Shown: one piece after another, positions 2,254 to 44,856 of the stretch
Layout of the letters: each line of letters starts with the position of its first letter
Numbering within the stretch: position 1 is the stretch's first letter
Origin: a virus
Lineage: Duplodnaviria; Caudoviricetes
Reading direction: 5' to 3' (one strand)
IMG/VR virus record: IMGVR_UViG_3300047288_000217
Span: 1-51,908 of that record
DNA length: 51,908 nucleotides
The notes under the pieces: generated by a model
Databases searched by the model: none
What the model saw: the letters and a program-made list of their open reading frames with translations, nothing else
Told to the model about the DNA's origin: nothing
Program-made: the position numbers and the translations under genes

Positions 2254-4908
2254 ATGCCTAAAGACACCCCATCAATCTTTTCCGTCAGCCCCTACGCCAG
2301 CAGCGTTGCTCGCGAAATGTACCCAGGCCAGCTTGGCCAGGATGACCGGCAGGACGCGGCGCGCCACATGCTGGCCGCTGGCACTATGGCACGCAAGTAC
2401 GGCCCAAAGGTTGCTGACTTTGCCGGTAAGGCGCACGAGTATTCCACGTCCCCGATGCGTGCTTTGATGATGATGCTTGGCCGTGGCGAGATGCCACCGG
2501 ATTACCAGCAAGACATGCACAACAACACTCTTGGGATTGAAATGGCTGTGCGAGCAAAGTCTCAGCGCGAGTTTGAAGACCTTGTGCAGCAGGCGGCCGA
2601 GCGCGCCGCGATGAGTCGCACCGAGGGTCGTCCCTGGATTAGCAAGGCCAAGGGTGGCGAAGTCAGCGCGGATGAATTGAACCGCCCGTACATCGGCTAC
2701 CGCTCCGCTGGCCGCCGCCCCGAGTCCCAGCAAGACAGAGCGGCGTCCTCCGTGGCTCCACTGGCTGCGTTGCGCGGCGCGGTATCGGGTGTGCTCGGCG
2801 CTCCCGGCGACATCGAGTCGTTGATCCGTATGCTGCCCGGCCTGTCAGAGCAGACCTTCCTGCCGACCAGCCGCGACGTCGAAGCTCGCTTGCCGTTGCG
2901 CGGCGTGAGCCAGACGCCCGTTGGCCGCGCCGCGACCGAGCTGGGCACGCTGGGCGGCGGGTTCTACACCGGGCCCGGCTCCCCGCTGCGTGCGATCGCT
3001 TCGCTGCCTGCGGCTGTGTCCCATGGCGCTGGCGAGTTCGCCCGTGCTGCTGGTGGCGCTGGCGCGCACGTTGTGAAACCCAAGGGCGGCAACTGGCTGT
3101 CCGGGACGGTTGAGCGAGTTGTTGAGCCGATGCGAGGTCGCGTAATTGGATCAGATCCAGCTCAACGTTTGCGTGATCTTGATGCCGCCTATGCTCAGAA
3201 TGTCGAGGCTGGCGTTGCTGTTGATCCTGAAGTTTTTGCAAGAGAACGCGCTCGGCTGGAGCCCGAAGCTGCCATCAACCGCTGGCTTGATACGAAACTT
3301 GCAAAATATTTCCGCAACGAGATGGCCACACCAGAAGACCCGCTGCGCGCACTGGCCGAGCGCGGCGTTTTGCACTACGACCCAACGCCAACAGGCTACA
3401 GCGTTTCAAAACAACGCATCGCCGCTGGATTCCCCGAAGAAGGCATGGCGCAATCCGACCTTGCAAAGCGATGGGAAAAACGTGCCGACACTTTCTTCAA
3501 CGAACTTCAAGCCTCCGATTTGACGCGCGGATATCCCGAGCTTGTTGAAAAAGACCCATGGCTTGCAAAAGTCCCACCTGAAACTCGCGTGTACGAACTT
3601 CTTGGCGGCGCGAATGAAGAGCTCGGAATGCAGCACCTGGTCGACGAGCTGAAAAACGCCATCAACCCAACGTCCGGTCTGCCCGAGAACCTGCGCTGGA
3701 AGTACCAGGACCTGGACAAGGTCACGGTGCCCCAGGCCGTTCAGCGCGTGGCGGACATCAACGCCTGGCGCGCGGCGCAAAAGGCCGAGGCTGACATGGC
3801 ACGAGCCATGGGACCGGCCACGCAGATTGTGAAGGAGTACCCGGAGCAGGGGTTTAAGTGGGTGGAGTTGAAGTTGCCCGAAAAAACAGGGAAAAAGGAA
3901 GCTCGAAGAATAGGGTCGGATGAGGCAGAAAGAATTGATGAGGGCGTTGATCGTCTTAATGAAGATGATCTGCAAGACTTTATTCGAGAGCAAGCAAAAG
4001 AAATGGGAATCAGGCGCGGGACTCCTGAATATGAAGAGCTTGCTCAAGAGTTAAAGAGAGATTTTGGCCCGGTCGAGAGCGAAGTAGACTCTGCTTACAA
4101 CATTCTCGAAGACGCCCTCAAGTACGAGGGCGAGACCATGGGCCACTGCGTCGGCGGCTACTGCCCGGATGTGGTCGAGGGCCGCTCCAAGATTTTCAGC
4201 CTGCGCGACAAGAAGGGGCAGCCGCATGTGACGATTGAGGTCAAGCCTGGGGTGGAAAATCCGTCGATTACTGAAGGTGAGTGGAAAGGTCAACGTCGCT
4301 TTATCGTCAACAACAAAGGAACTGGCTTTCCAACGATTGAAGAGGCCCAGCAATACGCTCGTGAAATAAGCACACCTGAAATCGTCCAGATCAAGGGCAA
4401 GGCCAACCGTGCGCCCAACCCCGAGTACCTGCCCGCCGTGCAAGACTTTGTGCGCAGCCAGCAGTGGGGACGAATTGGCGATCTGCAAAACACAGGCCTT
4501 GTCCAACTGCCCGACAAACGCCTGATCACTAAGGAGCAGTTCGACGAAGGTATCCAGCGCCTGACAGGCGAAGGCGAGCCAAGCGTGAACACTGAGTGGT
4601 TCCAGCAACAGATTAAGCGCGATCCGTCTTGGTGGGAGGAATCGAAGGGCGCTTTTGAAGGCTACGCTTTGGGCGGCCTGGTCCAGAAGTATGCCGCCGG
4701 TGGTCTGGTCATGGACCAGTCCAACATCTACGGCAGCGACGCCAAGCAGGACCCGGCGTCGGCCTACAAGTTCGCCGACGGTGGCCAGGCCGGATCGCCG
4801 CCGGCTTATGCCGAGGGTGGCTTGGTTGCGAATTCCCCCACAGTTGACTTCGACCCGGCTAGAATCGACTCCATCGTGGGCGAGCTCCACGCAATGAACG
4901 CAGGCTGA
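2254..4908 (+). CDS. Large multidomain protein (884 aa): N-terminal DA.RH...AHE...D.HNN..G domain, PcfJ-like domain, YAxGGxV repeats; probable virion-packaged protein
   Basis: QDAARHMLAAG..AHE..QDMHNNTLG; LKYEGETMGHCVGGY..IFSLRD..PHVTIEV..QIKGKANRAP (PcfJ-like); lies between terL and portal. Confidence 0.75.
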   Translation: MPKDTPSIFSVSPYASSVAREMYPGQLGQDDRQDAARHMLAAGTMARKYGPKVADFAGKAHEYSTSPMRALMMMLGRGEMPPDYQQDMHNNTLGIEMAVRAKSQREFEDLVQQAAERAAMSRTEGRPWISKAKGGEVSADELNRPYIGYRSAGRRPESQQDRAASSVAPLAALRGAVSGVLGAPGDIESLIRMLPGLSEQTFLPTSRDVEARLPLRGVSQTPVGRAATELGTLGGGFYTGPGSPLRAIASLPAAVSHGAGEFARAAGGAGAHVVKPKGGNWLSGTVERVVEPMRGRVIGSDPAQRLRDLDAAYAQNVEAGVAVDPEVFARERARLEPEAAINRWLDTKLAKYFRNEMATPEDPLRALAERGVLHYDPTPTGYSVSKQRIAAGFPEEGMAQSDLAKRWEKRADTFFNELQASDLTRGYPELVEKDPWLAKVPPETRVYELLGGANEELGMQHLVDELKNAINPTSGLPENLRWKYQDLDKVTVPQAVQRVADINAWRAAQKAEADMARAMGPATQIVKEYPEQGFKWVELKLPEKTGKKEARRIGSDEAERIDEGVDRLNEDDLQDFIREQAKEMGIRRGTPEYEELAQELKRDFGPVESEVDSAYNILEDALKYEGETMGHCVGGYCPDVVEGRSKIFSLRDKKGQPHVTIEVKPGVENPSITEGEWKGQRRFIVNNKGTGFPTIEEAQQYAREISTPEIVQIKGKANRAPNPEYLPAVQDFVRSQQWGRIGDLQNTGLVQLPDKRLITKEQFDEGIQRLTGEGEPSVNTEWFQQQIKRDPSWWEESKGAFEGYALGGLVQKYAAGGLVMDQSNIYGSDAKQDPASAYKFADGGQAGSPPAYAEGGLVANSPTVDFDPARIDSIVGELHAMNAG

Positions 4909-11743: not shown

Positions 11744-12658
11744 ATGGCAACCCCAATGCGTAGTACGGACTTCCGGTCCGTTGTTGAGCCTATCCTCAAC
11801 GAAGTGTTCGACGGTGTTTACGAGCAGCGTGCGGACGAGTGGAAGCAAGTCTTCCGCGAGCAAAAAGGCATCCCGCGCAACTATCACGAAGAACCCGTCC
11901 TGTACGGCTTCGGTGCTGCGCCCGAGCTGCCTGACGGCATGGCAGTGACCTACCAATCCGGTGGCGTCCTGTTCCTGCAGCGCTACCTGTACAAGGTGTA
12001 CGGCCTGGCCTTCGCTTTGACCAAAGTTCTGGTTGAAGACGGCGACCACATCCGTATCGGTCAGACCTACGCCAAGCACCTGGCGCAGTCCCTGATCGAG
12101 ACCAAAGAAACCCTGGCTGCCAACATCCTGAACCGCGCTTTCAACGGCGCGTACACCGGTGGTGACGGCGTGTCCCTGGTTTCCCCGGCCCACCCGATCG
12201 TCAACGGCACGTTCAGCAACCAGCTGGCCACCGCCGCCGCCCTGTCGCAGACGTCCCTCGAGCAGATGCTGATCCAGATCCGCAATGCCGTGGACAACAA
12301 CGGCAAGCGCATCCGCCTGACACCCAAGAAGATCGTTTCCGGTCCTTCCAACGTGTTCCAGGCCGAAGTGCTGCTCAAGTCTGTGCTGCGCACCGGCACT
12401 GCCGACAACGACATCAACCCGGTGAAGTCGATGGGTCTGCTGGCCGAAGGCCAAGCCAACCTGTCTCGTATCACCAGCACCACCGCCTGGTGGGTGCAGA
12501 CCGACGCTCCCGAAGGTCTGAAGCTGATGATGCGCCGTGGTCTGGAAAAGTCCATGGAAGGCGACTTCGAAACCGACAGCATGCGTTACAAAGCCACCGA
12601 GCGTTACGCTCTGGGCTGGACTGACCCGCGCGGTGTGTTCGGAACGGCCGGAGTCTGA
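11744..12658 (+). CDS. Major capsid protein (Mu gpT-like, HK97 fold)
   Basis: 304 aa, strongly biased codons, GDGVSLVSPAHP..N and EGDFETDSMRYKATERYALGWTDPRGVFG C-terminus; AAGGAGG RBS. Confidence 0.88.
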   Translation: MATPMRSTDFRSVVEPILNEVFDGVYEQRADEWKQVFREQKGIPRNYHEEPVLYGFGAAPELPDGMAVTYQSGGVLFLQRYLYKVYGLAFALTKVLVEDGDHIRIGQTYAKHLAQSLIETKETLAANILNRAFNGAYTGGDGVSLVSPAHPIVNGTFSNQLATAAALSQTSLEQMLIQIRNAVDNNGKRIRLTPKKIVSGPSNVFQAEVLLKSVLRTGTADNDINPVKSMGLLAEGQANLSRITSTTAWWVQTDAPEGLKLMMRRGLEKSMEGDFETDSMRYKATERYALGWTDPRGVFGTAGV

Positions 12659-16423: not shown

Positions 16424-18829
16424 ATGGCCCAAGTCCCATCAAACCTCATCCCGATCAGCATCACGAACCTGCCGGTTCCGGTGACGCTGCCTTCGGAGGA
16501 CACGCTGCTCGTTGGCGTCTATCAGGGCGTGACGTACAAGATTCGCGCCGGTGACCTGCTGCAAGTGGCCGGTGTGCCGACCTCGCGCCAGGTGATTGCT
16601 GGCACGAGCCTTACAGGCGGCGGAGCGCTGTCCTCGAACGTGACTTTGTCGGTTGCGCCCAAGGGCATCGGCACCGCGCAACTGGCCGACTCGGGCGTGA
16701 CCCCGGGCGTCTACGGCGACGGCACCAATGTGCCCCAGGTCACCGTGGACGCCACGGGCCGCGTGATGGCGGCGACGTCGGTGCCGATCTCGATTTCCGG
16801 CTACGTGCCAACCAGCCGCGAAGTGATCGCTGGAAACGGCCTCACGGGTGGTGGCCCGTTGTCCTCGAACGTCACGCTTGCGGTGAATTACGGCGGCACG
16901 CCCCTGGCTGGCTCCGGCTCCGGCTCGGCAGGCACGGCGCTGACCTTGTCGCGCTCTGACCACCGTCACCCAGCGGTTGACCTGGCCGACCAGACCCAGA
17001 TCGACGGCATCTTGCCGATCGACCAAGGCGGTACCGGCCGCAGCCTGGTCATGCAGCCCGGCGGCATGATCTGGTCCGGCTCCGACGGCCTGTATGTCGG
17101 GCCCGCTGGCGTTTCTGGCCAGGTGCTGGTCTCCGGCGGTACCGGCGCTCCGACCTGGGGCTCGACGGTGATCCTGGCGCCCGTGACGGCGCACTATTTC
17201 TTCGCCGGCCCATCGTCTGGCCCGGCCGCCGATCCCACCTTCCGCGCAATCGTCAACGGCGATCTGCCTGGCTTGGGCGAGGTGACCTACAACGGCGTGA
17301 GCGTTGCCCTGGGGGGCTCGGGCACCATCACGGCGGTAAACCCGTATGCGCTGACGATTGGCACCGGCCTGTCGGGCACCTCGTATGACGGCAGCGCTGC
17401 CGTCACGATCGCCAACACGGGCGTTTTGAGCTGGAGCGGCGGCACCACTGGCCTGACGCCCGCCACAGCCACCACGGGCGCTGTGACACTGGCTGGCACC
17501 CTGGCCATCGCCAACGGCGGCACAGGAGCCACCACGGCCGCTGGCGCCCCGTTCGCGCTCAAGGGAGCGAACAGCGATATCACCTCCATGTCGGGCATCA
17601 CCGGCGGGGTGGCCACTCCGGACTACATCGACTTCCACACCGGCGCGGTGGTGACGTCTGCGGTTGGCCGAATTTTCTGGGACGGCGGCACCACGCTGAA
17701 TGTCGGCATGACAGCCAACGTCGCCGGCAAGGTCAACGAGGACCAGTTCTACTACATCAAGGCATCCAGCGCGATCACCAAAGGTCAGGTGATCATGTTC
17801 ACCGGCGCCGTTGGCGCCTCGGGTGTTGTGACTGGCGCACCAGCAACCGGCGTCACCGATGGCTCGTACATCATGGGCGTGGCCGCAGAGGACATTGCGC
17901 TCAACGGTTTTGGCCTGGTGCAGGTCGCCGGAACGCTGCGCGGCCTGGACACCTCGGCCTTCACCGATGGCGCTGTGCTTTGGTACAACCCCGCTGTTAC
18001 GGGCGGTCTGACAGCAACCAAGCCTTCGGCGCCCAACATCAAAGTTCAGATCGCGGCTGTCGTCAACGCTGGCAACGGCGGCAGTGGCTCGATCCTGATT
18101 CGCGTCAGTGCCGGCTCTGTCCTGGGCGGCACGGACTCCAACGTCCAGTTTGGCACCCTGGCCAACAACGACCTGATCCAATACAGCACATCGCTGGGCT
18201 ACTGGCACAACATCCAACCTTCCGCCCTGACCGGTGTTGGCTCGCTGGCCAACGCGCTCACGATCGGCACAGGCCTGAGCGGGACGTCTTACAACGGATC
18301 GAGCGCAATCACGATTGCGATCGACAGCACGGTTGCAACGCTCAGCGGCTCGCAGACCCTGACCAACAAAACGATCAGCGGTGCTTCGAACACGCTGTCG
18401 AACATCGGCAACTCCTCGCTGACAAACTCATCTGTGACGTTCAACGGCGTGACTGTGGCCCTGGGCGCGTCCGGCACCATCACAGCGGCAAACCCGGCCG
18501 CGCTGACGCTGGGTTCCTACCTGACAGGTACCAGCTACGACGGCTCCGCGGCGGTCACGGCAGCCGTTGATGCCACCAGCACCAACACGGCGTCCAAGGT
18601 GGTGGCCCGTGACGCATCTGGCAACTTTGCGGCCGGCACGATCACGGCCGCCTTGTCTGGCAACGCCACCTCGGCCACCAACCTGGCTGGCGGCGCTGCC
18701 TCGCAGATACCATACCAGTCCGCAGCAGGCACCACGGCGTTTATCGCCAACGGCACGGCCGGGCAGGTTCTGAAATCAAACGGAGCGAGCGCCCCCTCCT
18801 GGGGTGACATTTCCGGAGGGACATTCTGA
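16424..18829 (+). CDS. Tail fibre protein (801 aa) with internal repeats
   Basis: G/T/S/A-rich; VTVDATGRV, AGxGLTGGGxLSSNVTL x2, ALTIGTGLSGTSYxGS-like x3, GGTGATTA; ends GGTF. Confidence 0.85.
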   Translation: MAQVPSNLIPISITNLPVPVTLPSEDTLLVGVYQGVTYKIRAGDLLQVAGVPTSRQVIAGTSLTGGGALSSNVTLSVAPKGIGTAQLADSGVTPGVYGDGTNVPQVTVDATGRVMAATSVPISISGYVPTSREVIAGNGLTGGGPLSSNVTLAVNYGGTPLAGSGSGSAGTALTLSRSDHRHPAVDLADQTQIDGILPIDQGGTGRSLVMQPGGMIWSGSDGLYVGPAGVSGQVLVSGGTGAPTWGSTVILAPVTAHYFFAGPSSGPAADPTFRAIVNGDLPGLGEVTYNGVSVALGGSGTITAVNPYALTIGTGLSGTSYDGSAAVTIANTGVLSWSGGTTGLTPATATTGAVTLAGTLAIANGGTGATTAAGAPFALKGANSDITSMSGITGGVATPDYIDFHTGAVVTSAVGRIFWDGGTTLNVGMTANVAGKVNEDQFYYIKASSAITKGQVIMFTGAVGASGVVTGAPATGVTDGSYIMGVAAEDIALNGFGLVQVAGTLRGLDTSAFTDGAVLWYNPAVTGGLTATKPSAPNIKVQIAAVVNAGNGGSGSILIRVSAGSVLGGTDSNVQFGTLANNDLIQYSTSLGYWHNIQPSALTGVGSLANALTIGTGLSGTSYNGSSAITIAIDSTVATLSGSQTLTNKTISGASNTLSNIGNSSLTNSSVTFNGVTVALGASGTITAANPAALTLGSYLTGTSYDGSAAVTAAVDATSTNTASKVVARDASGNFAAGTITAALSGNATSATNLAGGAASQIPYQSAAGTTAFIANGTAGQVLKSNGASAPSWGDISGGTF

Positions 18830-19164
18830 TGTTGGAAGAATTCATCAAGCGGCAGTTCGCCATCCGCGACGCCGCTCACCGCGCGCACTGGACGACCGAT
18901 TCAGGCTATCAGCACGAGACGCTGGGCGGTTTTTACAAAGGCGTGATCGACAAGGCCGACATGCTGGTCGAGGCCTCGATCGCTGCCTTTGGTGAAAAAC
19001 CCGAATCGCCTGAAAATACCATCGAGCAGATCAGGGAAAACATGATTTGGCTGATTGAGAATCGAAAAAAGCTGGCGCGCGAAGTCCCCGCCATCGAAAA
19101 TATCGTCGACGAGGTGTGCAAGTTCTACCTCGATGCACTGTTCAAACTCGAAAACCTGAGGTAA
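18829..19164 (+). CDS. Ferritin/Dps-like four-helix protein (DUF5856-like)
   Basis: AHRAHWTT.SGYQHETLGGFY..DMLVE..IENIVDE..LFKLENL. Confidence 0.65.
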   Translation: MLEEFIKRQFAIRDAAHRAHWTTDSGYQHETLGGFYKGVIDKADMLVEASIAAFGEKPESPENTIEQIRENMIWLIENRKKLAREVPAIENIVDEVCKFYLDALFKLENLR

Positions 19165-19168
19165 GAAA

Positions 19169-20572
19169 ATGTCGCAAGCAGGCTACACCCCGATCCAGCT
19201 CTATTACTCGACCACCGCTTCGACTGCTCCGTCCGCTGGCAACCTGGCCAACGGCGAGTTGGCGATCAACATCACGGACGGCAAGCTGTTCTACAAAGAC
19301 AACGGCGGCGTTGTGCAGGTGCTGGCCACGAAAGGCGCTGGCACCATCGGTGGCTCGAACACGCAGGTTCAGTACAACAGCTCTGGCGCCCTGGCCGGGT
19401 CTGCGAACCTGACGTTTGATGGCACCACACTGACGGCCTCTGGGTTGTCTGGCCCGCTGAACGGAACCGTGGGCGCAACAACGCCAAACACCGGCGCTTT
19501 CACCACACTGACGGCCTCTGGGTTGTTTTCGCTGACAGGGGATCAAGTTCAAGTCTCCGAAGGTGGAACTGGTGCCACAACCGCCATCAACGCACTAAGC
19601 AATCTCGGGTTCATCGCCTACAACGGCCTGTTCAGAAAAACCGACTCCACCATCGTCGCCTTCACCAAGACCGGTGCGGGTACAGCCACGACCTCTTCGA
19701 CCCTTTACGTCGAAGTCAACGGCAGCGTGAAGACCATTGCCAGCGGCGCATCTATCACCATGCCGACTCTGGCGGCAGGAACAGACTACGCAATCTGGGC
19801 CAAGACAGACGGCACACTTGAGGCCACCAGCAACCACACGTCCCCACCGACAGCCAACGCCCGCAAGATTGGCGGCTTCCACTACGCCCCGGGCGGTAAC
19901 GCCACAGGGCAGTCCGGTGGCAACACTACGGCACAAATCAACGAGTACTCGTTCTGGGATCTGAAATTCCGGCCCGTTTGTTCTGACCCACGAGGAATGA
20001 CGCTAGTTGGCGGCGGCTACTGGGTGGATATCTACCTCACGGGTGTGGACGCAATCACCAATGGATCATCCAAATACAACGTGACAATGGCGGATGGCGC
20101 TAGCCCTCCAAAAGTCCCGACCATGTTTGGCGGTAACGGCTCGACAACTTACGGCTCGTACACTTGGTTTGAGGCGATGGAGTTGGCGACTGCATTCGGT
20201 AAGCGTTGTCCTACACAGCAAGAGTTTATGTCTGCGATGTATGGCACAACCGAGGCATCGTCTGTTGGTTCTGACCAAGGTAGCACGATTCTCAATGCCG
20301 CCTACACGTCCAAATGGGGCGTTATCCAGGCTACTGGCGTGCTGTGGGTTTGGGGGCAAGAACGTGGCGGCGCGTACAACACAGGTGGCTGGAATGCCAA
20401 CACCGAAGGCCGTGGCTCCGAGTACAACGCACCCAATGCGGTGCTCCTTGGCGGCAACTGGAACAACGGGTCGAACTCCGGTTCACGTTGCTCGAGCTGG
20501 GCCAACGCGGCGTCGGACTCGGACTACCGCCTCGGTTCGCGCTTCGCCTGTGACCACCTGCAACTTGATTGA
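19169..20572 (+). CDS. mtd: DGR target: Mtd-like receptor-binding tail fibre protein with C-type-lectin-fold C-terminus
   Basis: NEYSFWDLKFRP..DPRGMTLV..SKWGVIQATG.LW.WG..GGNW..SGSR..GSRFACDHL closely resembles Bordetella phage BPP-1 Mtd as recalled; the N-terminal GELAINITDGKLFYKD domain differs. Confidence 0.92.
   Translation: MSQAGYTPIQLYYSTTASTAPSAGNLANGELAINITDGKLFYKDNGGVVQVLATKGAGTIGGSNTQVQYNSSGALAGSANLTFDGTTLTASGLSGPLNGTVGATTPNTGAFTTLTASGLFSLTGDQVQVSEGGTGATTAINALSNLGFIAYNGLFRKTDSTIVAFTKTGAGTATTSSTLYVEVNGSVKTIASGASITMPTLAAGTDYAIWAKTDGTLEATSNHTSPPTANARKIGGFHYAPGGNATGQSGGNTTAQINEYSFWDLKFRPVCSDPRGMTLVGGGYWVDIYLTGVDAITNGSSKYNVTMADGASPPKVPTMFGGNGSTTYGSYTWFEAMELATAFGKRCPTQQEFMSAMYGTTEASSVGSDQGSTILNAAYTSKWGVIQATGVLWVWGQERGGAYNTGGWNANTEGRGSEYNAPNAVLLGGNWNNGSNSGSRCSSWANAASDSDYRLGSRFACDHLQLD
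19423..19526 (+). repeat. Exact 26-bp direct repeat CACCACACTGACGGCCTCTGGGTTGT (19423-19448, 19501-19526)
   Basis: Read directly; encodes TTLTASGL twice. Confidence 0.9.
20436..20554 (+). repeat. DGR variable repeat (VR), 119 bp
   Basis: Matches 20977-21095 except at 20496, 20501, 20502, 20516, 20522, 20525, 20528, 20529 and 20531, all A in TR. Confidence 0.97.
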
Positions 20573-20588
20573 GGTGGCGAAAGCCACC
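20573..20588 (+). promoter_or_regulatory. DGR homing hairpin/cruciform downstream of VR/IMH
   Basis: GGTGGC-GAAA-GCCACC immediately after the target stop codon. Confidence 0.85.
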
Positions 20589-20599
20589 GGTAAGACTAA

Positions 20600-20965
20600 A
20601 TGGAACCAGTAAAGGACGCAGGAACGTGCTACGACCAAATGGCTATCGTCGAAAAGTACGAACGAGTCATCGCGTATCTGTATCCGATTGCGCAATCCAT
20701 GCCAAGAAAGCACGGGGTGGCGCGAGAGATGTTCTTGCAGTGCCTTTTGGGGGTCCCGGACTTGTTGTTTCAAGCTGGCAAGTCCAATCAGGTTTCAAAG
20801 ATTTACACCGCCGATGCGTCACTGGCGCAGGTGCGGTTTTGGATGCGATTCCTGCACTCGATAAAAGCAATGACCACGCACCAAATTCAGACAGCCCAAG
20901 TGCTGCTAGCAGAAGTTGGTGCGATGGTCGGGGCTTGGATCAAGCGCAGGCAAAAGCAGGGGTAG
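20600..20965 (+). CDS. avd: DGR accessory variability determinant
   Basis: 121 aa, CYDQMAIVEKYERVIAYLYPIAQSMPRKHGVAREMFL..GKSNQVSK..EVG..GAWIK; between target and TR. Confidence 0.93.
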   Translation: MEPVKDAGTCYDQMAIVEKYERVIAYLYPIAQSMPRKHGVAREMFLQCLLGVPDLLFQAGKSNQVSKIYTADASLAQVRFWMRFLHSIKAMTTHQIQTAQVLLAEVGAMVGAWIKRRQKQG

Positions 20966-20976
20966 GCTGGGTCAAT

Positions 20977-21095
20977 ATGCGGTGCTCCTTGGCGGCAACT
21001 GGAACAACGGGTCGAACTCCGGTTCACGTTGCTCGAACTGGAACAACGCGGCGTCGAACTCGAACAACAACATCGGTTCGCGCTTCGCCTGTGAC
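20977..21095 (+). ncRNA. DGR template repeat (TR); functional RNA probably includes the avd 3' end and the 21096-21243 spacer
   Basis: 11 AAC codons in the VR frame, 26 adenines; diverges from VR after TGTGAC (IMH vs IMH*). Confidence 0.95.
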
Positions 21096-21243
21096 GACAT
21101 CACATCATCGCTCTGTGCCTGCTACGGCGGCACAGGCAGACCAATCTAAGTGTGGTCAGCCAGTTCTATCCTCCTTCGGGAAATACGTTACTCGGTTCAC
21201 CATAGCGCCTAGTAGGAAATCGAAAAGCGCGGGTGGCATTTTT

Positions 21244-22227
21244 ATGGCAAAGAGACATTACAACCTGATCGAGCAGATAGCCAACATGGACAATCTGCGG
21301 CTCGCCCTTGACAGAACGGCACGTGGCAAAAAGATGACCTACGGCTATCTGGAGTTCAAGGAGTTTGCTGAGGCCAACTTGCTGGAAGTGCAGCAAGAGC
21401 TGATGGATGGCGCATACAAGATCGGCCCGTATAGGGAGTTCACCGTCTACGAGCCAAAGCCTCGCCAGATTTCCGCGCTGGACTTCAAAGACAGGCTGGT
21501 GCAGCACGCGCTGTGCAATGTCGTTGCGCCCATATTTGACCAAGCACTGCTGCCACAGACATTTGCCTGCCGCACCGGTTTCGGCACGCATGCAGGCGTG
21601 CGGTTTGTGCAGTCCAAGCTACGTTACACCGAAGCAAAGTATTTTCTCAAGACGGACTATTCAAAGTTCTTTCCGAGCATCGACAGGACAATCTTGCACA
21701 ACATGATTGAGAGAAAGATCGGGTGCAAGCGAACGCTTGAGATTTTCAGGGTGATTGTCCCGCCGGTCGGCAAAGGCTTACCCATTGGAAGCCTGACCAG
21801 CCCGTTGCTTGCCAATACCTACGGGAACGCCTCAGATCGGTTTGTACACTTCGACCTCGGCCACAGACACTGGGCTCGGTACATGGACGACATCGTGATT
21901 TTGAGCGACGACAAAGACCGACTCATGGACAGCTTTCTGCGCCTGAACGACTTTTCAATGAACCGCCTGAAGCTGCGCATCGGCAAGTGGCAAATCTCGC
22001 CAACCTCACGAGGCGTGAATTTCCTCGGGTACCGCATCTGGGCATCGCACAAACTGCTTCGCAAGGATTCGGTTCTGCGCGCAAAGCGCAAGGTTGCCAA
22101 CTTCATCCGCCACAAGGACGATGAAGGCCTGAGAAAATTCACAGCATCATGGTCTGGCCACGCACAATGGGCGGACACGCACAATCTTTTCAAATGGATG
22201 GAGCGCCGACATGGCATCACTTTCTAA
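21244..22227 (+). CDS. brt: DGR reverse transcriptase (327 aa)
   Basis: EPKPRQISALDFKDRLVQHAL, KTDYSKFFPSID, GLPIGSLTSP, RYMDD, GVNFLGYRI; ATG 21244. Confidence 0.96.
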   Translation: MAKRHYNLIEQIANMDNLRLALDRTARGKKMTYGYLEFKEFAEANLLEVQQELMDGAYKIGPYREFTVYEPKPRQISALDFKDRLVQHALCNVVAPIFDQALLPQTFACRTGFGTHAGVRFVQSKLRYTEAKYFLKTDYSKFFPSIDRTILHNMIERKIGCKRTLEIFRVIVPPVGKGLPIGSLTSPLLANTYGNASDRFVHFDLGHRHWARYMDDIVILSDDKDRLMDSFLRLNDFSMNRLKLRIGKWQISPTSRGVNFLGYRIWASHKLLRKDSVLRAKRKVANFIRHKDDEGLRKFTASWSGHAQWADTHNLFKWMERRHGITF

Positions 22228-22459
22228 AACCGTCATCAACACCCGCGAAGACCTGGACGCGATTCATGGCACGCCAGAGCATGCAGAGTTCATGTCCTTC
22301 CTCCGTTACTCAATGACCCGCAAGCAGGACGTTGCCGTTCGACCAGACGGATACGGTCAGCCCGGGTATGAAGGCCCAAAGATTCCGCCTGTCTGGGCTG
22401 ATGTTGAAGACCTGAGCACCATTGAGCGTTTTGGGTTCACAAAGGCAGATTTCGAGTGA
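22211..22459 (+). CDS. Hypothetical protein coupled to the RT gene (82 aa)
   Basis: GGAG RBS, overlaps RT end; INTREDLDAI..EDLSTIERFGF. Confidence 0.7.
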   Translation: MASLSKTVINTREDLDAIHGTPEHAEFMSFLRYSMTRKQDVAVRPDGYGQPGYEGPKIPPVWADVEDLSTIERFGFTKADFE

Positions 22460-22466
22460 GGTCAAT

Positions 22467-22562
22467 GTGCGCGACTGGGCTGAAGCACTGATCGCCGCCA
22501 CCCTGATCGTCGGCGTGGTGCTTTGGTCCGTCCGGATTTTCTTGGGAGTTTTCTATGGCTGA
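22467..22562 (+). CDS. 31-aa single-TM peptide upstream of endolysin (not in ORF track)
   Basis: GAGG RBS, GTG start, MRDWAEALIAATLIVGVVLWSVRIFLGVFYG*; overlaps lysin start. Confidence 0.5.
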   Translation: MRDWAEALIAATLIVGVVLWSVRIFLGVFYG

Positions 22563-23073
22563 TTTCCTGCCAGCGTTTGAACGCATGATCCAGGACGAGG
22601 GCGGCTACGTGCTGCACAACGTCCAGGGCGACCGTGGCGGCCAAACTTACGCGGGCATCGCCAGGAACTTCAACTCGGACTGGGAAGGCTGGGAGTACGT
22701 CGACCGGCGCGAGACGCCGCCAACGCCCCTGGTGCGCAACTGGTACCACACGAGCTACTGGGCCCCGATTTGCGGCGACCAGATCACCAGCCAGGCGATC
22801 GCGTCCTCGATCTTCAACTTTGCGGTCAACTCCAGCGCGCCCAAGCGGCCCACCGTGGCCATCAAGCTCGCGCAGCTGGTGGTGGGGGCAACGCCGGACG
22901 GAATCCTTGGGCCGGCCACCATCCAGGCCATCAACGCCTGCGATCCGGACAAGTTCGTGATGGCCTACGCCCTGGCCAAGATCGCCCGGTACCGGGATAT
23001 CGTGACCCGCGACCGCACCCAGGCCAAGTTCCTGCTCGGCTGGATCAACCGCACACTGAAGGACGCCACATGA
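22555..23073 (+). CDS. Endolysin, glycoside hydrolase family 108 with peptidoglycan-binding C-terminus
   Basis: EGGY..DRGGQTYAGIA; DGILGPATI; KFLLGWINR. Confidence 0.92.
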   Translation: MADFLPAFERMIQDEGGYVLHNVQGDRGGQTYAGIARNFNSDWEGWEYVDRRETPPTPLVRNWYHTSYWAPICGDQITSQAIASSIFNFAVNSSAPKRPTVAIKLAQLVVGATPDGILGPATIQAINACDPDKFVMAYALAKIARYRDIVTRDRTQAKFLLGWINRTLKDAT

Positions 23074-23483
23074 ACATCCTGGGCATCGGCAGCGTGATCG
23101 AGTCGGTCGGCAAGGTGGCCGGCGACCTGATCACCACGGACAAAGAGCGCATGCAGCTTGAGCTGGAGGGCCGCAAGCTCGACCAGGCCATCGACCAGGC
23201 GCAGATCGAGGTCAACAAGGTGGAGGCGGCCAGCTCCAGCGTTTTTGTCGCCGGCTGGCGCCCCGCGATCGGCTGGATTGGCGCTGCAGCCCTGGCCTAT
23301 CAGTTCTTGCTCTACCCGCTGGCCTTGTGGGTCTGGACCTACCTGCAGGGCACCGGCTGGATTCCCAAGGAGCTGACGCCACCGCCCGTCCTGGACGCGG
23401 ACAAGCTGTGGGTGATCCTGTCGGGCATCCTGGGCATCGCAGGTCTTCGCTCGGCCGAGAAATTCAAGGGTGTGGCCCGATGA
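23070..23483 (+). CDS. Holin (3TM, GTA-holin-like family)
   Basis: QIEVNKVEA..FVAGWRPAIGW..GILGIAGLRSAEKFKG; ATG 23070 overlaps lysin stop. Confidence 0.85.
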   Translation: MNILGIGSVIESVGKVAGDLITTDKERMQLELEGRKLDQAIDQAQIEVNKVEAASSSVFVAGWRPAIGWIGAAALAYQFLLYPLALWVWTYLQGTGWIPKELTPPPVLDADKLWVILSGILGIAGLRSAEKFKGVAR

Positions 23484-23490
23484 CGCCGGT

Positions 23491-23519
23491 TTGCCCTGCG
23501 CCAGCGGCCAACCTATAAT
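23491..23519 (+). promoter_or_regulatory. Sigma70-type promoter for tail/internal protein genes
   Basis: TTGCCC-17 bp-TATAAT. Confidence 0.6.
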
Positions 23520-34611: not shown

Positions 34612-34771
34612 CGCTGGCCTGCGGCTGCGCCAGACGGGCCTGCAGCTCCTTGACCTGCTTTTCAAGGGCTTCGTTTTCGGCCGTCAGGCGCTCGTTGCGC
34701 GCCCGCAGCAGCCGGTTCTCGTAGTCCAGCTCGGCCACCAGCATGTCCAGCTTCATCTCGTCTTCGCTCAC
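34601..34771 (-). CDS. Small coiled-coil protein
   Basis: GGAGG RBS, GTG start; LDYENRLLRARNERL. Confidence 0.65.
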   Translation of the reverse strand: MSEDEMKLDMLVAELDYENRLLRARNERLTAENEALEKQVKELQARLAQPQASGEH

Positions 34772-35370
34772 ACCCCACCTCCCTTCTTCTCGCGCAGCTT
34801 GGCTTCGATGGCGCGTTGCCATTGCCAGTAGGCGGCTGGATAGATGACCAGATATTCCTCGTCAGATGTGCGAACGCGCTCTGCCTCGAATTGCTTTTCA
34901 AGCTCACGCATTTCCTCATCCGTCAGCCCAACAAATTGCCGCTGTGCTGCGTGTGCGTCTGTGCGTCGAAGGTTTGCTGCCGTCGATGCGTTGGCCAAAG
35001 GAAGGTGACACTTTCCCATGCAAGCTTGGTGATAAGCGCAAACCCTTGAGTCCGTGCATCCACGCTCTTTGGTCTTTGTCAATGCCACAGGCTCCTGCAC
35101 AGGTGCTGCGGGTGGGGTGGTGTAGAGGGGCATAACCTCTTTGATGCGGCCAATCCAATACTCGGGCGAGTTGTATGGCAGGGTGTCCAACATATCGTTG
35201 AGCAACTGCTCAACTTGTAAGAATTGCTTACCAGTTGCCACCGGCTCCTGCTTCTCTGCTTGCTCGATGGCGGTGCGTAGGGCCATAGCTAAGACATCAA
35301 CATCAGAGCCTCCATATGTGTTGGCCTCAATAAACTCCAGCGCCTGCTTCATTGTTTCGATGTGGTTCAT
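34768..35370 (-). CDS. Mosaic hypothetical protein (QEPVA / PLYTTPP / VGLTDEE modules)
   Basis: AAGGA RBS; modular phage early-protein motifs. Confidence 0.7.
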   Translation of the reverse strand: MNHIETMKQALEFIEANTYGGSDVDVLAMALRTAIEQAEKQEPVATGKQFLQVEQLLNDMLDTLPYNSPEYWIGRIKEVMPLYTTPPAAPVQEPVALTKTKERGCTDSRVCAYHQACMGKCHLPLANASTAANLRRTDAHAAQRQFVGLTDEEMRELEKQFEAERVRTSDEEYLVIYPAAYWQWQRAIEAKLREKKGGGV

Positions 35371-35380
35371 TTCAGTATCC

Positions 35381-35965
35381 TTACAAATCCATCACTTCAA
35401 CATCGTGCGGCTTTTTCTTGCCGGCCAGTATTTCGTGAATGCGCCGCTCTGTCTCGCGGTGCGCCTTGATCATCGTGCGCGCTGGCAGGGCTTCGAGCAT
35501 GTCGCTGTAATCGGCAAGGACGCCGCGCACGGCCTGGATGCCAGCGCCGTCGAGCCGGATGTTTCCGCCCGCCTTGTGGCGCTTTCCTGCCAGCGCCATG
35601 GCCGTCACCGCGTCGGACAGCAGGCCGGAGGCGTCGGTAATCTCCACCATGTCGCCGTCGCACCCATGCCAGTGGCCAGGAATCGGCACCTGGCGAGCCT
35701 CGCCCGTTTCCGGATCGACTTTGATTTCGAAGAAGCTGCCGCTTGTGACCAGCGTCTCCATGATGTTGACCGCGTCGCTCACCACGCGCCAGTCGTCCGT
35801 GCTGGGCTCTGGGGCCTTCTCCATGGCGTCCAGGCCCTGGTGCATGCGCATGAGCTGGTGAGTCCGGTGCGATTCTGGCAGCGGCTGCGTGGGGCTGGCC
35901 ATCATCACATCGATTAGGCTGTAACGGTACACATACACTGTTTTTGGCTTTTTGTGCTTTTTCAT
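35381..35965 (-). CDS. Hypothetical phage protein (194 aa)
   Basis: DWRVVSDAVNIMETL..IRLDGAGIQAVR; coupled genes. Confidence 0.75.
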   Translation of the reverse strand: MKKHKKPKTVYVYRYSLIDVMMASPTQPLPESHRTHQLMRMHQGLDAMEKAPEPSTDDWRVVSDAVNIMETLVTSGSFFEIKVDPETGEARQVPIPGHWHGCDGDMVEITDASGLLSDAVTAMALAGKRHKAGGNIRLDGAGIQAVRGVLADYSDMLEALPARTMIKAHRETERRIHEILAGKKKPHDVEVMDL

Positions 35966-36201
35966 ATTCCGGCAAGTTTTTGTGCGGCTCGATGCAGCCG
36001 CGCGTTGAACCAGCGCCTGATCGCGTAACTGCGCACCAGGCTGATGATGGTGAACCAGGCGCCGATCGCCAGGTTGTCGGACAGTGGCAGCTGAATGCCA
36101 AACATCGGGAAAATGACCAACTGGCTGGCCAGCGCCACACCGTAGCCGATCACCACGTTGAACACGGACTCAATCAGCGAGGCGGTGCGGGACTGGTTCA
36201 C
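35962..36201 (-). CDS. Small two-TM membrane protein
   Basis: QSRTASLIESVFNVVIGY..SLVRSYAIRRWF; GTG start overlapping upstream stop. Confidence 0.75.
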   Translation of the reverse strand: MNQSRTASLIESVFNVVIGYGVALASQLVIFPMFGIQLPLSDNLAIGAWFTIISLVRSYAIRRWFNARLHRAAQKLAGI

Positions 36202-36395
36202 GCCACCACCCACACGGCCTTGCCGCCCGTGGCCTCGATCTGTTCCGTCTTGAGCCGGATGTACTGTTGGCCAGGTACGCCGGCCGACTGCACGTAGCCC
36301 TGAATGCCCCAGGGCTTGAGCTCGGTGACCACAACCATGCAGCCCCCAAAAACCTCAACCTCTGGGTTGACTTGAACGATATCGCCGACGTTCAT
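36198..36395 (-). CDS. Small beta-barrel (SH3-like) hypothetical protein
   Basis: MNVGDIVQVNP..GCMVVVTELKPWGIQGYV. Confidence 0.7.
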   Translation of the reverse strand: MNVGDIVQVNPEVEVFGGCMVVVTELKPWGIQGYVQSAGVPGQQYIRLKTEQIEATGGKAVWVVA

Positions 36396-36601
36396 TTTTC
36401 GTCCCCAGACTTGGCGTCCTCGAACATCCAATCCTCAACGTCCTGGAGGCGGTAGCGAACATGGCCGCGCGGCGTGCCGCCGAGCTTGATGAACTTGGGA
36501 CCCTTGTTGGCCAGGCGCCAGTTTTCCAGCGTGCCGACCGAAATCTTGATCAACTGGGAGACCTCCTGTGGCGTCAGCATCTGGTTTTCAAACTTCTCCA
36601 T
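36392..36601 (-). CDS. Excisionase/AlpA-like helix-turn-helix protein
   Basis: LTPQEVSQLIKISVGTLENWR..GPKFIKLG..VRYRLQDVEDWM. Confidence 0.88.
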   Translation of the reverse strand: MEKFENQMLTPQEVSQLIKISVGTLENWRLANKGPKFIKLGGTPRGHVRYRLQDVEDWMFEDAKSGDEK

Positions 36602-36645
36602 GCGGGTACTCCTTGCGGACCGCCCGAAGGCGGCCCTTGTTCACG

Positions 36646-36846
36646 TTATTCAGCGGCTGCTGGGGCAGTCTCTGCGGCGGGGTTAACCACAGGGATGTTT
36701 TGCGCCTCAGCTTGCGCTTTGGCCTGGCTCTCCAGGTTGTTCAAGAGCACCCAGGCGTTGGTCTTGGTGGGCAGGTCACCAAGAATGGCGTGCAGGAAGT
36801 TGAACTCGCTGACGGACAGCTTGATGGTGATGGTTTGTTCGTTCAT
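36646..36846 (-). CDS. Hypothetical protein (66 aa)
   Basis: ITIKLSVSEFNFLHAILGDLP; co-oriented in operon. Confidence 0.6.
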   Translation of the reverse strand: MNEQTITIKLSVSEFNFLHAILGDLPTKTNAWVLLNNLESQAKAQAEAQNIPVVNPAAETAPAAAE

Positions 36847-36853
36847 GGGTTTC

Positions 36854-37669
36854 TCACTTAGGTTGGTATGTGCCCAAAAGCACAGCGGTGGTTTTCACAG
36901 TTGAGCGGACCAGCTCGGCCAGCTCGTTTGCCATTTCCTCTTCGTGCTGCTCCAGATTCTGGACACGCAGAGTGATGGTGGGTTTGTCGCCGCTTGTGCG
37001 CACGCCAAGGCGAAGCACAAACAAGCGCGATGCCAGGCCGTGGTAAGGCACGGTTTCGAAGTAAACCAAGGTGGGCAGCGGCTCGGTGCTGGTCGCTTGG
37101 ACGCTTTCAAAAGCGCTGCGGCTGGCGGCGTGCTGCTTCTCGGTGTTCTCCATCTTGCGCATGGCCTCAATGCTCACCTTGCGAACAGCGGCGATGGCTT
37201 TGGCTGGCGAGATGGTGCCCTCGTCGTTGAAGCAGGACACCATGCTGGGCCAGTCCTCCAAGAACTCGGCTATCGTTTGCTGGCTGTGAGCTTGGCCCCC
37301 GGACACCGTGAGCATGGCCTGAAATGCGGCTGTGCGGCGAGCCTCAAGCACGGCCAGGTTGTCGGCCTGGCCCGGCTCTTCGGGTACCCCAAGGTTCAGG
37401 ACCGCTGTGGCCGACATGGCGGATGCGTTGACAAACACCGTGGCTCCAATCTCGGCGTGTGCTTCCACGTAGGTGGCAAAGTCTGGTAGCGCGTTGGTCT
37501 TCATCACGCCGATGGCGCGGCGGCGATTGGTCTGGTGTTTCTCCAGATCATGCAGCCGGAAACCCTCGGGCAGCACGGCCACAAAAGATGCGCCGACATT
37601 GTTGTTTGCGGCGGTGATGGCCTCTGACATTTGCAGGGCCTCGATGGCGTCTTTGTCGATCATGGCCAC
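36854..37669 (-). CDS. DUF2303 (YfdQ-like) protein
   Basis: LPEGFRLHDLEK..AVLNLG..EFLEDW..AAVRKVSIE..F...PYHGL. Confidence 0.85.
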   Translation of the reverse strand: MAMIDKDAIEALQMSEAITAANNNVGASFVAVLPEGFRLHDLEKHQTNRRRAIGVMKTNALPDFATYVEAHAEIGATVFVNASAMSATAVLNLGVPEEPGQADNLAVLEARRTAAFQAMLTVSGGQAHSQQTIAEFLEDWPSMVSCFNDEGTISPAKAIAAVRKVSIEAMRKMENTEKQHAASRSAFESVQATSTEPLPTLVYFETVPYHGLASRLFVLRLGVRTSGDKPTITLRVQNLEQHEEEMANELAELVRSTVKTTAVLLGTYQPK

Positions 37670-37672
37670 CCC

Positions 37673-38029
37673 TTAGACCAGCTCGCCCTGCTTGCCCATC
37701 AGCGAAGGCTGAGCGAGCGAGAGAGCGCCGTACTTGCCAACGTGCAGCACGGTGGCGCGTTTTTCTTCCTCGCCAGACTTGCCGTCCAGCGTGGGCTTGA
37801 CGAATTTCAGCGTGTGCTCGCAGCGCACCTGGCCGGTACCAGGAATCTGCGAAAAAGACAGCTTGATGTTGACCTCGCCGACCTTGTCGTGGTCGGTGCA
37901 GGCAGCGGCCACTTGGGACAGGGCGATCGAGAGCTTGCGCTCAAAGATGCCGCCGTCCAGGTCGGTGAAGAACTCGGAAACGTCGGTCGCGGCTGCGACG
38001 CTGATGGGGGATGGTTTTTGCTCGCTCAT
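37673..38029 (-). CDS. YfdP-like protein paired with DUF2303
   Basis: TDVSEFFTDLDGGIFERKLS..HTLKFVKPT..G..EE..LHVGKYGALS. Confidence 0.75.
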   Translation of the reverse strand: MSEQKPSPISVAAATDVSEFFTDLDGGIFERKLSIALSQVAAACTDHDKVGEVNIKLSFSQIPGTGQVRCEHTLKFVKPTLDGKSGEEEKRATVLHVGKYGALSLAQPSLMGKQGELV

Positions 38030-38047
38030 GGTGTGCTCCTGGTTGGG

Positions 38048-38254
38048 TTAAACGGCGTCTGCGTTGTCGTTGTTGGCCACGCGCTCGACCGGAATACCGG
38101 CCGTCACGTAGTCTGCAACATCTGCGGTGCTTGCGCGATCAATTTCAAAGCGGTCCTTGACCAGGTGGCGCAGCACCTGGGCCAGGCTGCCTGCGCGGAC
38201 CAGACGAATGTCGTCCTTGCCTTGCTCGCGAATCACGTAAATGCGGTATTCCAT
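38048..38254 (-). CDS. Hypothetical protein (68 aa)
   Basis: RIYVI..RLVRAGSLAQVLRH; AGGAG RBS. Confidence 0.7.
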   Translation of the reverse strand: MEYRIYVIREQGKDDIRLVRAGSLAQVLRHLVKDRFEIDRASTADVADYVTAGIPVERVANNDNADAV

Positions 38255-38275
38255 GGGGTTCTCCTGTTGGCGGGC

Positions 38276-38560
38276 TTATTGTTTGGCCGGGAAAAGTTGT
38301 GCCAGCACGGATTCGTACTGCGTCTTGCGGCGCTCAAGCAGAGCGACCTTGTCGAGCTTGTCCAGCAGGCTTGGGAAGTTGATGTCCTCCTTGGCGCACT
38401 GCTCTTGAATGTCGGCTTCCAAACGAATCAACTCGTCGTCCAGCTTGGCCATCTCCAGCTCGGCTTGGCTGCGAACCTTGCGTGCGCGGATGGGTGCCAG
38501 TGCTTCTGACAGCTTCTCCTTGGACATGGCGATGATTTCTGCAAATGGTTTGAGTTTCAT
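38276..38560 (-). CDS. Hypothetical coiled-coil protein
   Basis: GGAG RBS; helical 94 aa. Confidence 0.7.
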   Translation of the reverse strand: MKLKPFAEIIAMSKEKLSEALAPIRARKVRSQAELEMAKLDDELIRLEADIQEQCAKEDINFPSLLDKLDKVALLERRKTQYESVLAQLFPAKQ

Positions 38561-38826
38561 GGGGCTTCTCCAGTCAGTAAAAGTTTGTTGTCTGCCTTCT
38601 TGAGAAAGGCAAGGGGGTCTTTGGGGTCCACGACAGCTACTTGTCGTTGTTGCTCGGCGTGATGCCCACCAGCAATTGCGCCGCCGTATGGGTTGTAGAC
38701 CATCTGCTGCTGCGCATGCATCATGCGTTGCTGTTCGTAACGCAAGTGCTCCATGTGCCGGTCATACTGTGCTTTGCTGTCAAACATCATGTCTTTGCTG
38801 TGATCGTAGAACGTACCAATTGCCAT
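38557..38826 (-). CDS. Hypothetical protein (89 aa)
   Basis: AAGGA RBS before ATG 38826; stop overlaps next start. Confidence 0.6.
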   Translation of the reverse strand: MAIGTFYDHSKDMMFDSKAQYDRHMEHLRYEQQRMMHAQQQMVYNPYGGAIAGGHHAEQQRQVAVVDPKDPLAFLKKADNKLLLTGEAP

Positions 38827-38913
38827 GGTTATTCCTTGTGAGGTGGGCCTACTTGCCACCCCGTCAGCGGCAACAACTCCGCCCGTGCCGGGGTTTGGCT
38901 TTCGGCCCAAAAA

Positions 38914-39768
38914 TCAGATCGGGCTGTCGGCTTCGTTTTCGCCAGCGTAGGTGGCGTCCTGGACGTCGGTGTGCGGCACGTCGATCACGCCGTCGGCGTC
39001 AGGCTGCTGGGGCTCTTCCTGCGCCTGCTCAGCGACTTTATTGAGGCGGCTGGGGCGTCGGGCTGCGGACGGCTTTTCCTCGGCTTGTGCGGCCTCTGGT
39101 GCGGCCTGTGCGGGCTCTGGCATGAACAGCTCGTCGTCCTCTTTGAGCACGCCGTCAATGTCGGTGCTCAAAGGCAGGCGCTTGCTGTGGCGGCGAATGA
39201 CGGTCTTCTTGGCCATCTCGGCAAAGTCTGACACCCAGGGGCCAGAGCTGCCGGAGCGGCTGCGGGCCTTGATCGCCAGCACGTCCTCGACGCTCATCAC
39301 TTCGCGGGATTTCTCGCCGTCCTTCATGGTGACGATCGAGTAAACCGCGATCAGCTTGCCACGGTTGGCCAGGTTGGGCTTGTGCGTGATGTGCTCTTCG
39401 TCGCCCAGGCAGAAATCGAAGGTGTCGTTTTCGTAGACCGCCTGGACCGACCAGGTGCTGATTTCGCCCGAGTTGCGCACCAGCTTCATGATGCCCGCGA
39501 CCATCGGCATCCACTGCGCCTGGTTTTTGAACGTGACGATTGCGCCTTCGCGGCCGTCTGGCAGCAGGCCCATCTGCGCGGCCTTGGTGGCTGCGGCAAA
39601 CAGCGTGCGGCGGTCAGCCTCCAACAACGCTGGGTTGGTCTGCACAGCGGTCAGCGTGACGCGCACAAAACGGTCGACGCTGACGTGGGCTGGCAGGGCG
39701 GCTTTGAACTGAGGGGCCATCTTTTCGATTGCGCCTCGCACCTCTTGAACTGCGGGGAGATTACTCAT
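38914..39768 (-). CDS. recT: RecT-family single-strand annealing recombinase
   Basis: AAQMGLLPDGREG..GIMKLVRNSG..AVYENDTF..GPWVSDFAEMAKKTVIRRHSKRLPLS. Confidence 0.93.
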   Translation of the reverse strand: MSNLPAVQEVRGAIEKMAPQFKAALPAHVSVDRFVRVTLTAVQTNPALLEADRRTLFAAATKAAQMGLLPDGREGAIVTFKNQAQWMPMVAGIMKLVRNSGEISTWSVQAVYENDTFDFCLGDEEHITHKPNLANRGKLIAVYSIVTMKDGEKSREVMSVEDVLAIKARSRSGSSGPWVSDFAEMAKKTVIRRHSKRLPLSTDIDGVLKEDDELFMPEPAQAAPEAAQAEEKPSAARRPSRLNKVAEQAQEEPQQPDADGVIDVPHTDVQDATYAGENEADSPI

Positions 39769-39846
39769 CTGGATTACTCCTGAAAACGCCGGTGGCCGAC
39801 CGGCTGCGGGGTGGATTCCTGTTTGGAATTTGCAAACAGTGTACCA

Positions 39847-40803: not shown

Positions 40804-41014
40804 GATCGAGCTCCAAAGGTCCGAAAAGCGCGCGCCCTGCAGCCTCGGGGAACCGGGCGCCACGTGAGGCCACCAGGTTGGCGTCGATCACCTCGTTGAA
40901 GCCGTCGCATGGCGATATCCAGTAGCCGCGCTCGCCGTCGTCCTGCGTGGCCTCAACGATGCCCACCAGGCCTCGTCCGCTGGTGAACCAGGTTACTTTG
41001 TGAATGGTGGTCAT
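40793..41014 (-). CDS. Hypothetical protein (73 aa)
   Basis: WFTSGRGLVGIV..GARFP; coupled. Confidence 0.7.
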   Translation of the reverse strand: MTTIHKVTWFTSGRGLVGIVEATQDDGERGYWISPCDGFNEVIDANLVASRGARFPEAAGRALFGPLELDHGN

Positions 41015-41346: not shown

Positions 41347-41396
41347 AGGTCGCTCCTTTCAGCTTCCGTTACGGTTTAAAAATCGTGGCTTAAAAA

Positions 41397-44514: not shown

Positions 44515-44517
44515 GGT

Positions 44518-44838: not shown

Positions 44839-44856
44839 ATCGTGATCCTGGCGAGG

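Follow-up and report, generated by a model that had tools for sequence, protein, structure and literature searches.

Plus-strand positions 19169–22459 of the IMG/VR phage record IMGVR_UViG_3300047288_000217 (51,908 bp, linear, CheckV completeness estimate 95%; analysed over its full length and called the window below) raise the question whether a fibre gene with a repeat at its 3' end and the genes that follow it form a complete diversity-generating retroelement (DGR), and whether such an element has altered its target in nature. The segment contains, in this order and all on the plus strand, a gene of 467 aa, a hairpin, a gene of 121 aa, a 119-nt repeat copy, 128 nt of non-coding sequence, a gene of 327 aa and a gene of 82 aa. 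We are highly confident that it is a complete DGR of the Bordetella phage BPP-1 type, with one template repeat (TR), one variable repeat (VR) and one reverse transcriptase (RT) in the record, and it is very probably functional. The BPP-1 tropism-switching architecture proposed in the initial annotation was recovered part by part in independent tests, namely the structures of Mtd, Bbp7 and the BPP-1 RT (bRT), the Rfam family RF03022, and the priming and initiation sites.

A repeat finder returned a single strong direct repeat of 122 nt in the segment (20436–20557 and 20977–21098, offset 541). The upstream copy, the VR (20436–20554, 119 nt), lies at the 3' end of the 467-aa target gene (19169–20572) and codes for aa 423–462 of its product; the downstream copy is the TR (20977–21095). 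The two differ at nine positions within 20436–20554 (20496, 20501, 20502, 20516, 20522, 20525, 20528, 20529 and 20531), and the TR base is an adenine in all nine cases, for which the probability by chance is about 3.2e-7 given the 26 adenines among the 119 nt of the TR. The initial annotation had described a 119-bp VR/TR pair with nine mismatches, all at TR adenines; this was confirmed to the base, and proper alignment of 20436–20554 disclosed no non-adenine mismatch. A tenth mismatch, at 20555 (C versus G), is the first difference between the initiation of mutagenic homing (IMH) site and its TR counterpart, IMH*. The codon changes that had been listed (AAC to AGC, GCC, GAC, GAC, TAC and CGC, and ATC to CTC) match the alignment exactly, and counting in frame gave the 11 AAC codons claimed for the TR, together with one ATC codon. 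Eleven of these 12 variable codons coincide with variable residues of BPP-1 Mtd.

The same bias is present in related loci. IMG/VR holds more than 600 Mtd-like stretches, the best 80 of which (78 distinct loci) were kept, and a further 16 loci with related RTs were taken from GTDB genomes. Each of the 94 loci was compared with itself by BLAST, and 47 were selected by eye as containing a pair that resembles VR and TR. In 41 ungapped VR/TR pairs of related loci, 561 of 614 mismatches fell on adenines of the downstream copy, with 9–23 mismatches per pair (median 14), and the spacing between VR and TR in the IMG/VR relatives (approximately 515–575 nt) is similar to the 541 nt of the window.

The genes and the RNA expected of a DGR surround the repeat. 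The avd gene noted in the initial annotation (121 aa, 20600–20965) was identified by Pfam bAvd (3e-28) and PHROG 3206 ('Avd protein of DGR'), and its product is 67% identical to Bbp7 of BPP-1, with a match to the solved Bbp7 structure (PDB 4dwl, 6e-52). Downstream of the TR, the spacer (Sp) part of the DGR RNA (21110–21237) matched Rfam RF03022 Phage_DGR over model positions 1–127 of 127 with 106.4 bits (gathering threshold 50, E 1.7e-19). Position 21158 is an adenosine equivalent to Sp A56 of BPP-1, the 2'-OH of which primes cDNA synthesis (PMC6182149), and sits in a 10-nt block (Sp 50–59) identical to BPP-1; position 21091 is equivalent to TR G117 of BPP-1, the first base copied. By analogy, the same priming chemistry would operate at A21158 and 21091. 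The RT with a YMDD motif, likewise noted before, is encoded at 21244–22227 (327 aa), matches Pfam RVT_1 and PDB 8ub7_A (bRT, 1e-142), shares 64% identity with Brt from end to end and retains R74 and I181 in addition to YMDD. A repeat that arose by chance, or a duplicated segment without retroelement function, is hardly credible in view of the adenine-specific mismatches, the canonical order of Avd, RT and Rfam RNA, and the synteny with BPP-1.

Evidence of past activity, asserted in the initial annotation, was strengthened by natural samples, in which the VR differs between otherwise nearly identical copies of the locus. Among 24 public runs that were listed, 20 contain part of the cassette (15 studies; metagenomes from freshwater, aquatic and riverine habitats, and one coded organism), and two of these runs may be the source of the record. 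Contigs of four runs from four studies (X3, X4, X6 and X10) were compared with the window over 18000–23500. In X3, one contig of 5,037 nt covered 19500–23500 with 19 differences in 4001 nt, 16 of them within 20457–20536 and the others at 21459, 21803 and 23468; 14 of the 16 VR differences were at TR-adenine sites, and no difference was listed in the TR. In X4, contigs covering 20532–21015 and 21057–22696 showed 0 and 1 differences, respectively, and a contig covering 19621–20559 showed 13, the five listed ones all being at TR-adenine sites. The contigs of X6 end at 20461 and resume at 20532, and a 160-nt contig of X10 over the VR carried 17 differences, compared to 2 in the preceding 809 nt. 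The VR is clearly a hotspot of differences between samples, with the pattern that retrohoming predicts, and the element has diversified its target gene in nature.

These comparisons also bear on where in the VR the changes lie. In the window, none of 11 TR-adenine sites before 20496 is changed, compared to 9 of 14 from 20496 on (Fisher p = 0.001). According to a passage in PMC5758913, cDNA transfer begins at the 3' end, without a fixed upstream stop, and the confinement of the window's changes to the 3' part suggests a partial, 3'-anchored homing event with its 5' junction inside the VR. The clustering could also reflect selection that keeps Asn at the 5' codons, although X3 does carry changes in these codons.

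Several observations weigh against an intact and active DGR of the BPP-1 type, and they concern the sample data, the RT and the homing site. With regard to the samples, the run data are contigs rather than reads and only the best-supported differences are listed, and two of the 16 VR differences of X3 (20477 and 20536) are at TR thymines. The latter would fit a VR shaped by ordinary mutation under diversifying selection or by recombination with related phages rather than by retrohoming, as would the mosaic structure of X3 upstream of 19500 (21 differences in 734 nt), the replacement of a segment of its 801-aa fibre gene (937 letters for 463) and the co-occurrence of many related cassettes per sample, visible as extra depth and joints in X4. 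We nevertheless consider such an origin very improbable, since TR adenines account for only 25 of the 115 copied positions but for the sites of 14 of the 16 differences, since 16 of the 19 differences in 4001 nt fall within 80 nt, and since the TR copy, which has the same sequence and lies 541 nt away, is unchanged. Moreover, the in vitro error of bRT at U, C and G, given as approximately 0.5–3% per site in a passage of PMC7826257, suffices for one or two such changes per event, so that over about 90 non-adenine sites the two thymine-site changes of X3 are within expectation of retrohoming.

With regard to the RT, codon 187 (21802–21804) reads CCG, so that the window has the signature motif IGSLTSP instead of the IGSLTSQ of BPP-1 and fits the DGR RT signature [I/V/L]GxxxSQ, as named in a passage of PMC7826257, at six of seven positions, the last being Pro. 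At this position Gln is invariant among the related RTs (54 of 54), and in four of four other runs the same phage has A at 21803 (CAG, Gln); the window copy could therefore be altered in activity. The representative of the 90%-identity cluster, the commoner variant with three contigs, differs from the window RT at residue 187 only, and the window VR, with its nine mismatches, has the lowest number of differences from its TR among the cassettes compared. Taken together, these data could describe a genuine DGR of which the window copy is impaired or altered by Q187P, its VR being the frozen product of earlier activity. We regard this as unlikely. In an in vitro experiment reported in PMC7826257, the frequency of adenine misincorporation by bRT(Q187P)-Avd was unaltered, with more bias to dA, and the window RT with P187 is for this reason expected to be active; a small distance between VR and TR, for its part, tells us nothing about activity. 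It is conceivable that Pro at codon 187 represents a minority variant; still, two sources give the identical protein with Pro, which speaks against an origin in assembly error alone.

With regard to the homing site, the IMH-like end of the VR claimed in the initial annotation was found at 20533–20567, with bounds set by alignment to BPP-1, for which the IMH was defined in PMC3240598, and with a putative function. It consists of a 14-nt counterpart of (GC)14 (20533–20546) and a 21-nt element (20547–20567) that includes TGTGACCACCTG at 20549–20560; the CTGTGACCACCTG at the VR 3' end recurs unchanged in BPP-1. VR and TR are the same at the 3' end up to 20554 and 21095, respectively, and then diverge, the TR side running as an IMH*-like continuation to about 21108. 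Between the 21-nt element and the corresponding TR stretch (21088–21108), 9 of 21 positions differ, compared to five in BPP-1. Such divergence of 20547–20567 from the TR is the behaviour expected of an IMH relative to an IMH*, the role of the element being putative. The (GC)14 counterpart, for its part, has only 10 G or C among 14 nt, with four T, which differs from BPP-1.

Directly 3' of the stop codon (20570–20572) lies the hairpin/cruciform element GGTGGC-GAAA-GCCACC (20573–20588), a 6-bp stem with a GAAA loop, as the initial annotation had it. A GC-rich hairpin with a 4-nt GRNA loop downstream of the IMH is a trait of BPP-1-type elements, and BPP-1 has at the same place a GAAA loop and two compensatory stem changes relative to the window. 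A hairpin with a 4-nt loop is present 3' of the stop codon in most related loci. Across 43 distinct sequences and six stem pairs, 83.5% of the cells were paired, compared to 62% in shuffles, and 48 cells were doubly changed where 15.2 were expected, a value reached in 0 of 500 shuffles. Among 49 loci including BPP-1 and the window, the loop is GAAA in 25, GGAA in 7, GGTA in 4 and GCAA, GATA or GACA in 5, which we refer to as GNRA type. The stem of the window, at 6 bp, is shorter than the 8 bp of BPP-1, for which deletions of at least 2 bp greatly lowered homing and 8–10 bp was optimal (PMC3240598). However, 6 bp is the commonest length in related cassettes (25 of 49 loci), so that cassettes evidently do not all require the same stem length. 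Folded as a single DNA sequence, 20540–20605 does no better than shuffles (z −1.49), and in the minimum-energy fold the 5' arm of the hairpin pairs with an upstream ACCACC; the evidence for the hairpin is therefore that from covariation alone, and a role in homing is assigned to it by analogy with BPP-1.

By homology with BPP-1, a complex of RT and Avd would bind a transcript spanning the end of avd, the TR and the spacer RNA. Synthesis of cDNA would be primed from the equivalent of Sp A56 (21158), begin at the equivalent of G117 (21091) and copy the TR faithfully except at adenines, and the cDNA would then replace the VR at the 3' end of the fibre gene, with the IMH-like end and the GAAA hairpin as guides. 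In this way, the 12 codons (11 AAC and one ATC), which are predicted to lie on the ligand-binding face of a C-type-lectin domain, would be randomised without giving rise to stops.

The protein that would be diversified consists of an N-terminal fibre-type module (about aa 1–152) and a part with Mtd-like beta-sandwich and C-type-lectin domains (aa 153–466). The latter matched the solved Mtd structure (PDB 1yu4, E 1e-99), Pfam mtd_2nd was found over aa 164–264, and aa 140–466 matched PHROG 11262 ('tail protein', 1e-113). Aa 155–467 are 52% identical to BPP-1 Mtd, and a search of the whole BPP-1 genome gave no match to aa 1–154, bearing out that the adhesin N-terminus is unlike that of BPP-1. In line with a fibre module, aa 3–127 matched PHROGs of tail-fibre N-termini, and the first 55–57 residues are 56–86% identical to fibre genes of other uncultivated phages. 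Within the window, the N-terminus shares with a 399-aa protein only a 21-residue GGTGATTA-type motif (E 5e-05), and its comparison with the 801-aa fibre protein gave nothing significant. By its likeness to Mtd, the target is probably a receptor-binding protein with the VR codons on the ligand-binding face of its C-type-lectin domain. An exact 26-nt direct repeat (19423–19448 and 19501–19526) is located in the N-terminal module and codes twice for TTLTASGL; the X3 contigs break there. Two records of Escherichia phage T7 (LR745707.1 and LR745708.1) carry in gene 17 a C-terminus 50–51% identical to the Mtd-like aa 258–467 of the target; these records look engineered.

Compared to BPP-1, the cassette has the same gene order, mtd, avd/bbp7, TR, brt and bbp4, including a small gene that overlaps the RT stop, and RF03022 matched the spacer over its full length, with no difference from that family seen at this level. 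It differs in its target (467 aa with another N-terminal fibre module of 152 aa, versus an Mtd of 381 aa) and in the length of TR and VR (119 nt versus 134 nt in BPP-1). Outside the cassette the likeness ends. Among 61 open reading frames (ORFs) of the window searched with tblastn against the whole BPP-1 genome, seven had matches, namely the cassette genes (Mtd, Avd, RT and Bbp4, at 52–67%) and, weakly, the endolysin (30%) and a primase, in agreement with the earlier statement that the phage backbone is different; the backbone in common with BPP-1 (capsid, portal, terminase and replication genes) that is a trait of Rauchvirus was not found. The capsid gene (11744–12658) had been called Mu-gpT-like; a match to Mu-like_gpT exists (23.3 bits, in which no individual stretch passes by itself), but the best Pfam family is Phage_capsid_4 (45.6 bits).

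The capsid is 84.5% identical to those of the Caulobacter phages RW, GB2A, RLK and KcrB, which form the proposed genus Riverwalkvirus (PMC11053796). This likeness points to Caulobacter phages and does not name the host. The structural module is syntenic with that of RW at 35–85% identity (portal 53%, GroES-like protein 63%, SU10-type adaptor 56%, fibre and virion proteins 46–53%), whereas none of the cassette proteins (Mtd, Avd, RT and Bbp4) found a match in RW, and neither 'reverse transcriptase' nor 'diversity-generating' occurs in the text of the paper describing it (PMC11053796). In RW, three small genes fill the interval that in the window accommodates the DGR together with the 801-aa fibre gene and, for lysis, the genes of an endolysin (22555–23073) and a holin. 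The replication genes differ as well, with RecT/RecE-like proteins, helicase and primase in the window versus a DNA polymerase in RW; among them, only the primase (50761–51906) matched RW, weakly (28% over about 100 aa). No RW match was found for the RecT-like (38914–39768), RecE-like (39847–40863), sigma-factor-like (46596–47012) and helicase (48305–49726) genes, the early/replication region being 34768–47000. The genome is thus a mosaic, RW-like in its structural genes only. Two further genes stand apart: for the 801-aa Gly/Thr/Ala-rich fibre-like gene (16424–18829), neither Pfam nor PHROG gave a match and RW lacks a counterpart, and an 884-aa ORF between terminase and portal (2254–4908) matches DUF6973 and PcfJ-like families and has no RW match.

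With a BPP-1-like cassette next to RW-like structural genes, the cassette appears to have moved as a module, extending from about target residue 141–155 through the Bbp4-like gene. The best 80 IMG/VR relatives, which do not include the same phage, are 50–82% identical, and most match only from target residue 141–157 or so to 467, which places the junction of the common module where the Mtd beta-sandwich begins. Conservation among the related loci does not extend to the other genes flanking the cassette. In the phage collection, the closest RT outside five Bordetella phage records (64%) is 40% identical, and the Mtd-type targets of Synechococcus phages S-CBS1 and S-CBS3 and of Marinomonas phage P12026 are distant (37–44%). 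Related RTs also occur in Akkermansiaceae and Thiobacillus metagenome-assembled genomes and in a Pandoraea nosoerga assembly, which again does not name the host. DGRs of the BPP-1 type are well known and abundant in uncultivated phages, and the window element is a further member of this kind. It is a natural example of the prototype cassette outside Bordetella phages, in a freshwater phage with Caulobacter-phage-like structural genes and another fibre N-terminus, and its VR variants can be recovered from several independent studies. For phage ecology it is a further instance in which a receptor-binding tip is the target of hypervariation, a kind of which a large-scale catalogue exists already (PMC8144416). 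For DGR biology it offers two handles, a natural Q187P variant beside a Q187 sibling and a conserved small Bbp4-like gene.

The Bbp4-like gene (22211–22459), the first 17 nt of which lie within the RT gene, codes for an acidic protein of 82 aa. This protein is 66% identical to Bbp4 of BPP-1, the gene of which likewise overlaps brt. Forty-five loci, some of them near-duplicates of each other, have an RT of 49% identity or more and at least 260 nt of sequence after it; a Bbp4-like gene was found in 44 of these, directly after the RT gene in 43, whereas 0 of 10 loci with an RT below 48% identity have one. In 50,697 phage records, a Bbp4-like match occurred only in the five Bordetella phage records, compared to 47 records with a related RT. 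The gene thus travels with the cassette through unrelated phage backbones. Neither Pfam nor PHROG matched the protein, for which the protein database has 606 clusters, all of them unnamed; its structural model is confident (predicted local distance difference test, pLDDT, 86.9) and gave no usable fold match in the PDB (best Foldseek E 4, best VIA-align wide Z 2.5) or in the ESM Atlas. The BPP-1 row in Supplementary Table S1 of the 2017 survey (PMC5758913) gives no accessory gene beyond avd, and a literature search, weak as a negative because RBBP4 swamped it, found no publication treating bbp4 with BPP-1. The BPP-1 DGR has been reconstituted in E. coli from its core components alone with an efficiency of about 1e-5 (PMC12875486), and Bbp4 is therefore dispensable for retrohoming. 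We tentatively put forward, as a possibility that we hold to be rather doubtful, that the Bbp4-like protein is an unrecognised functional component of BPP-1-type cassettes, which might influence RT-Avd or what becomes of the cDNA, or assist assembly of the diversified Mtd tip. One IMG/VR relative (L030) is arranged differently: its Bbp4-like ORF (1659–1901) is located not after the RT gene but upstream of two VR-like copies, which face a single TR (2771–2893, 3785–3907 and 4321–4443).

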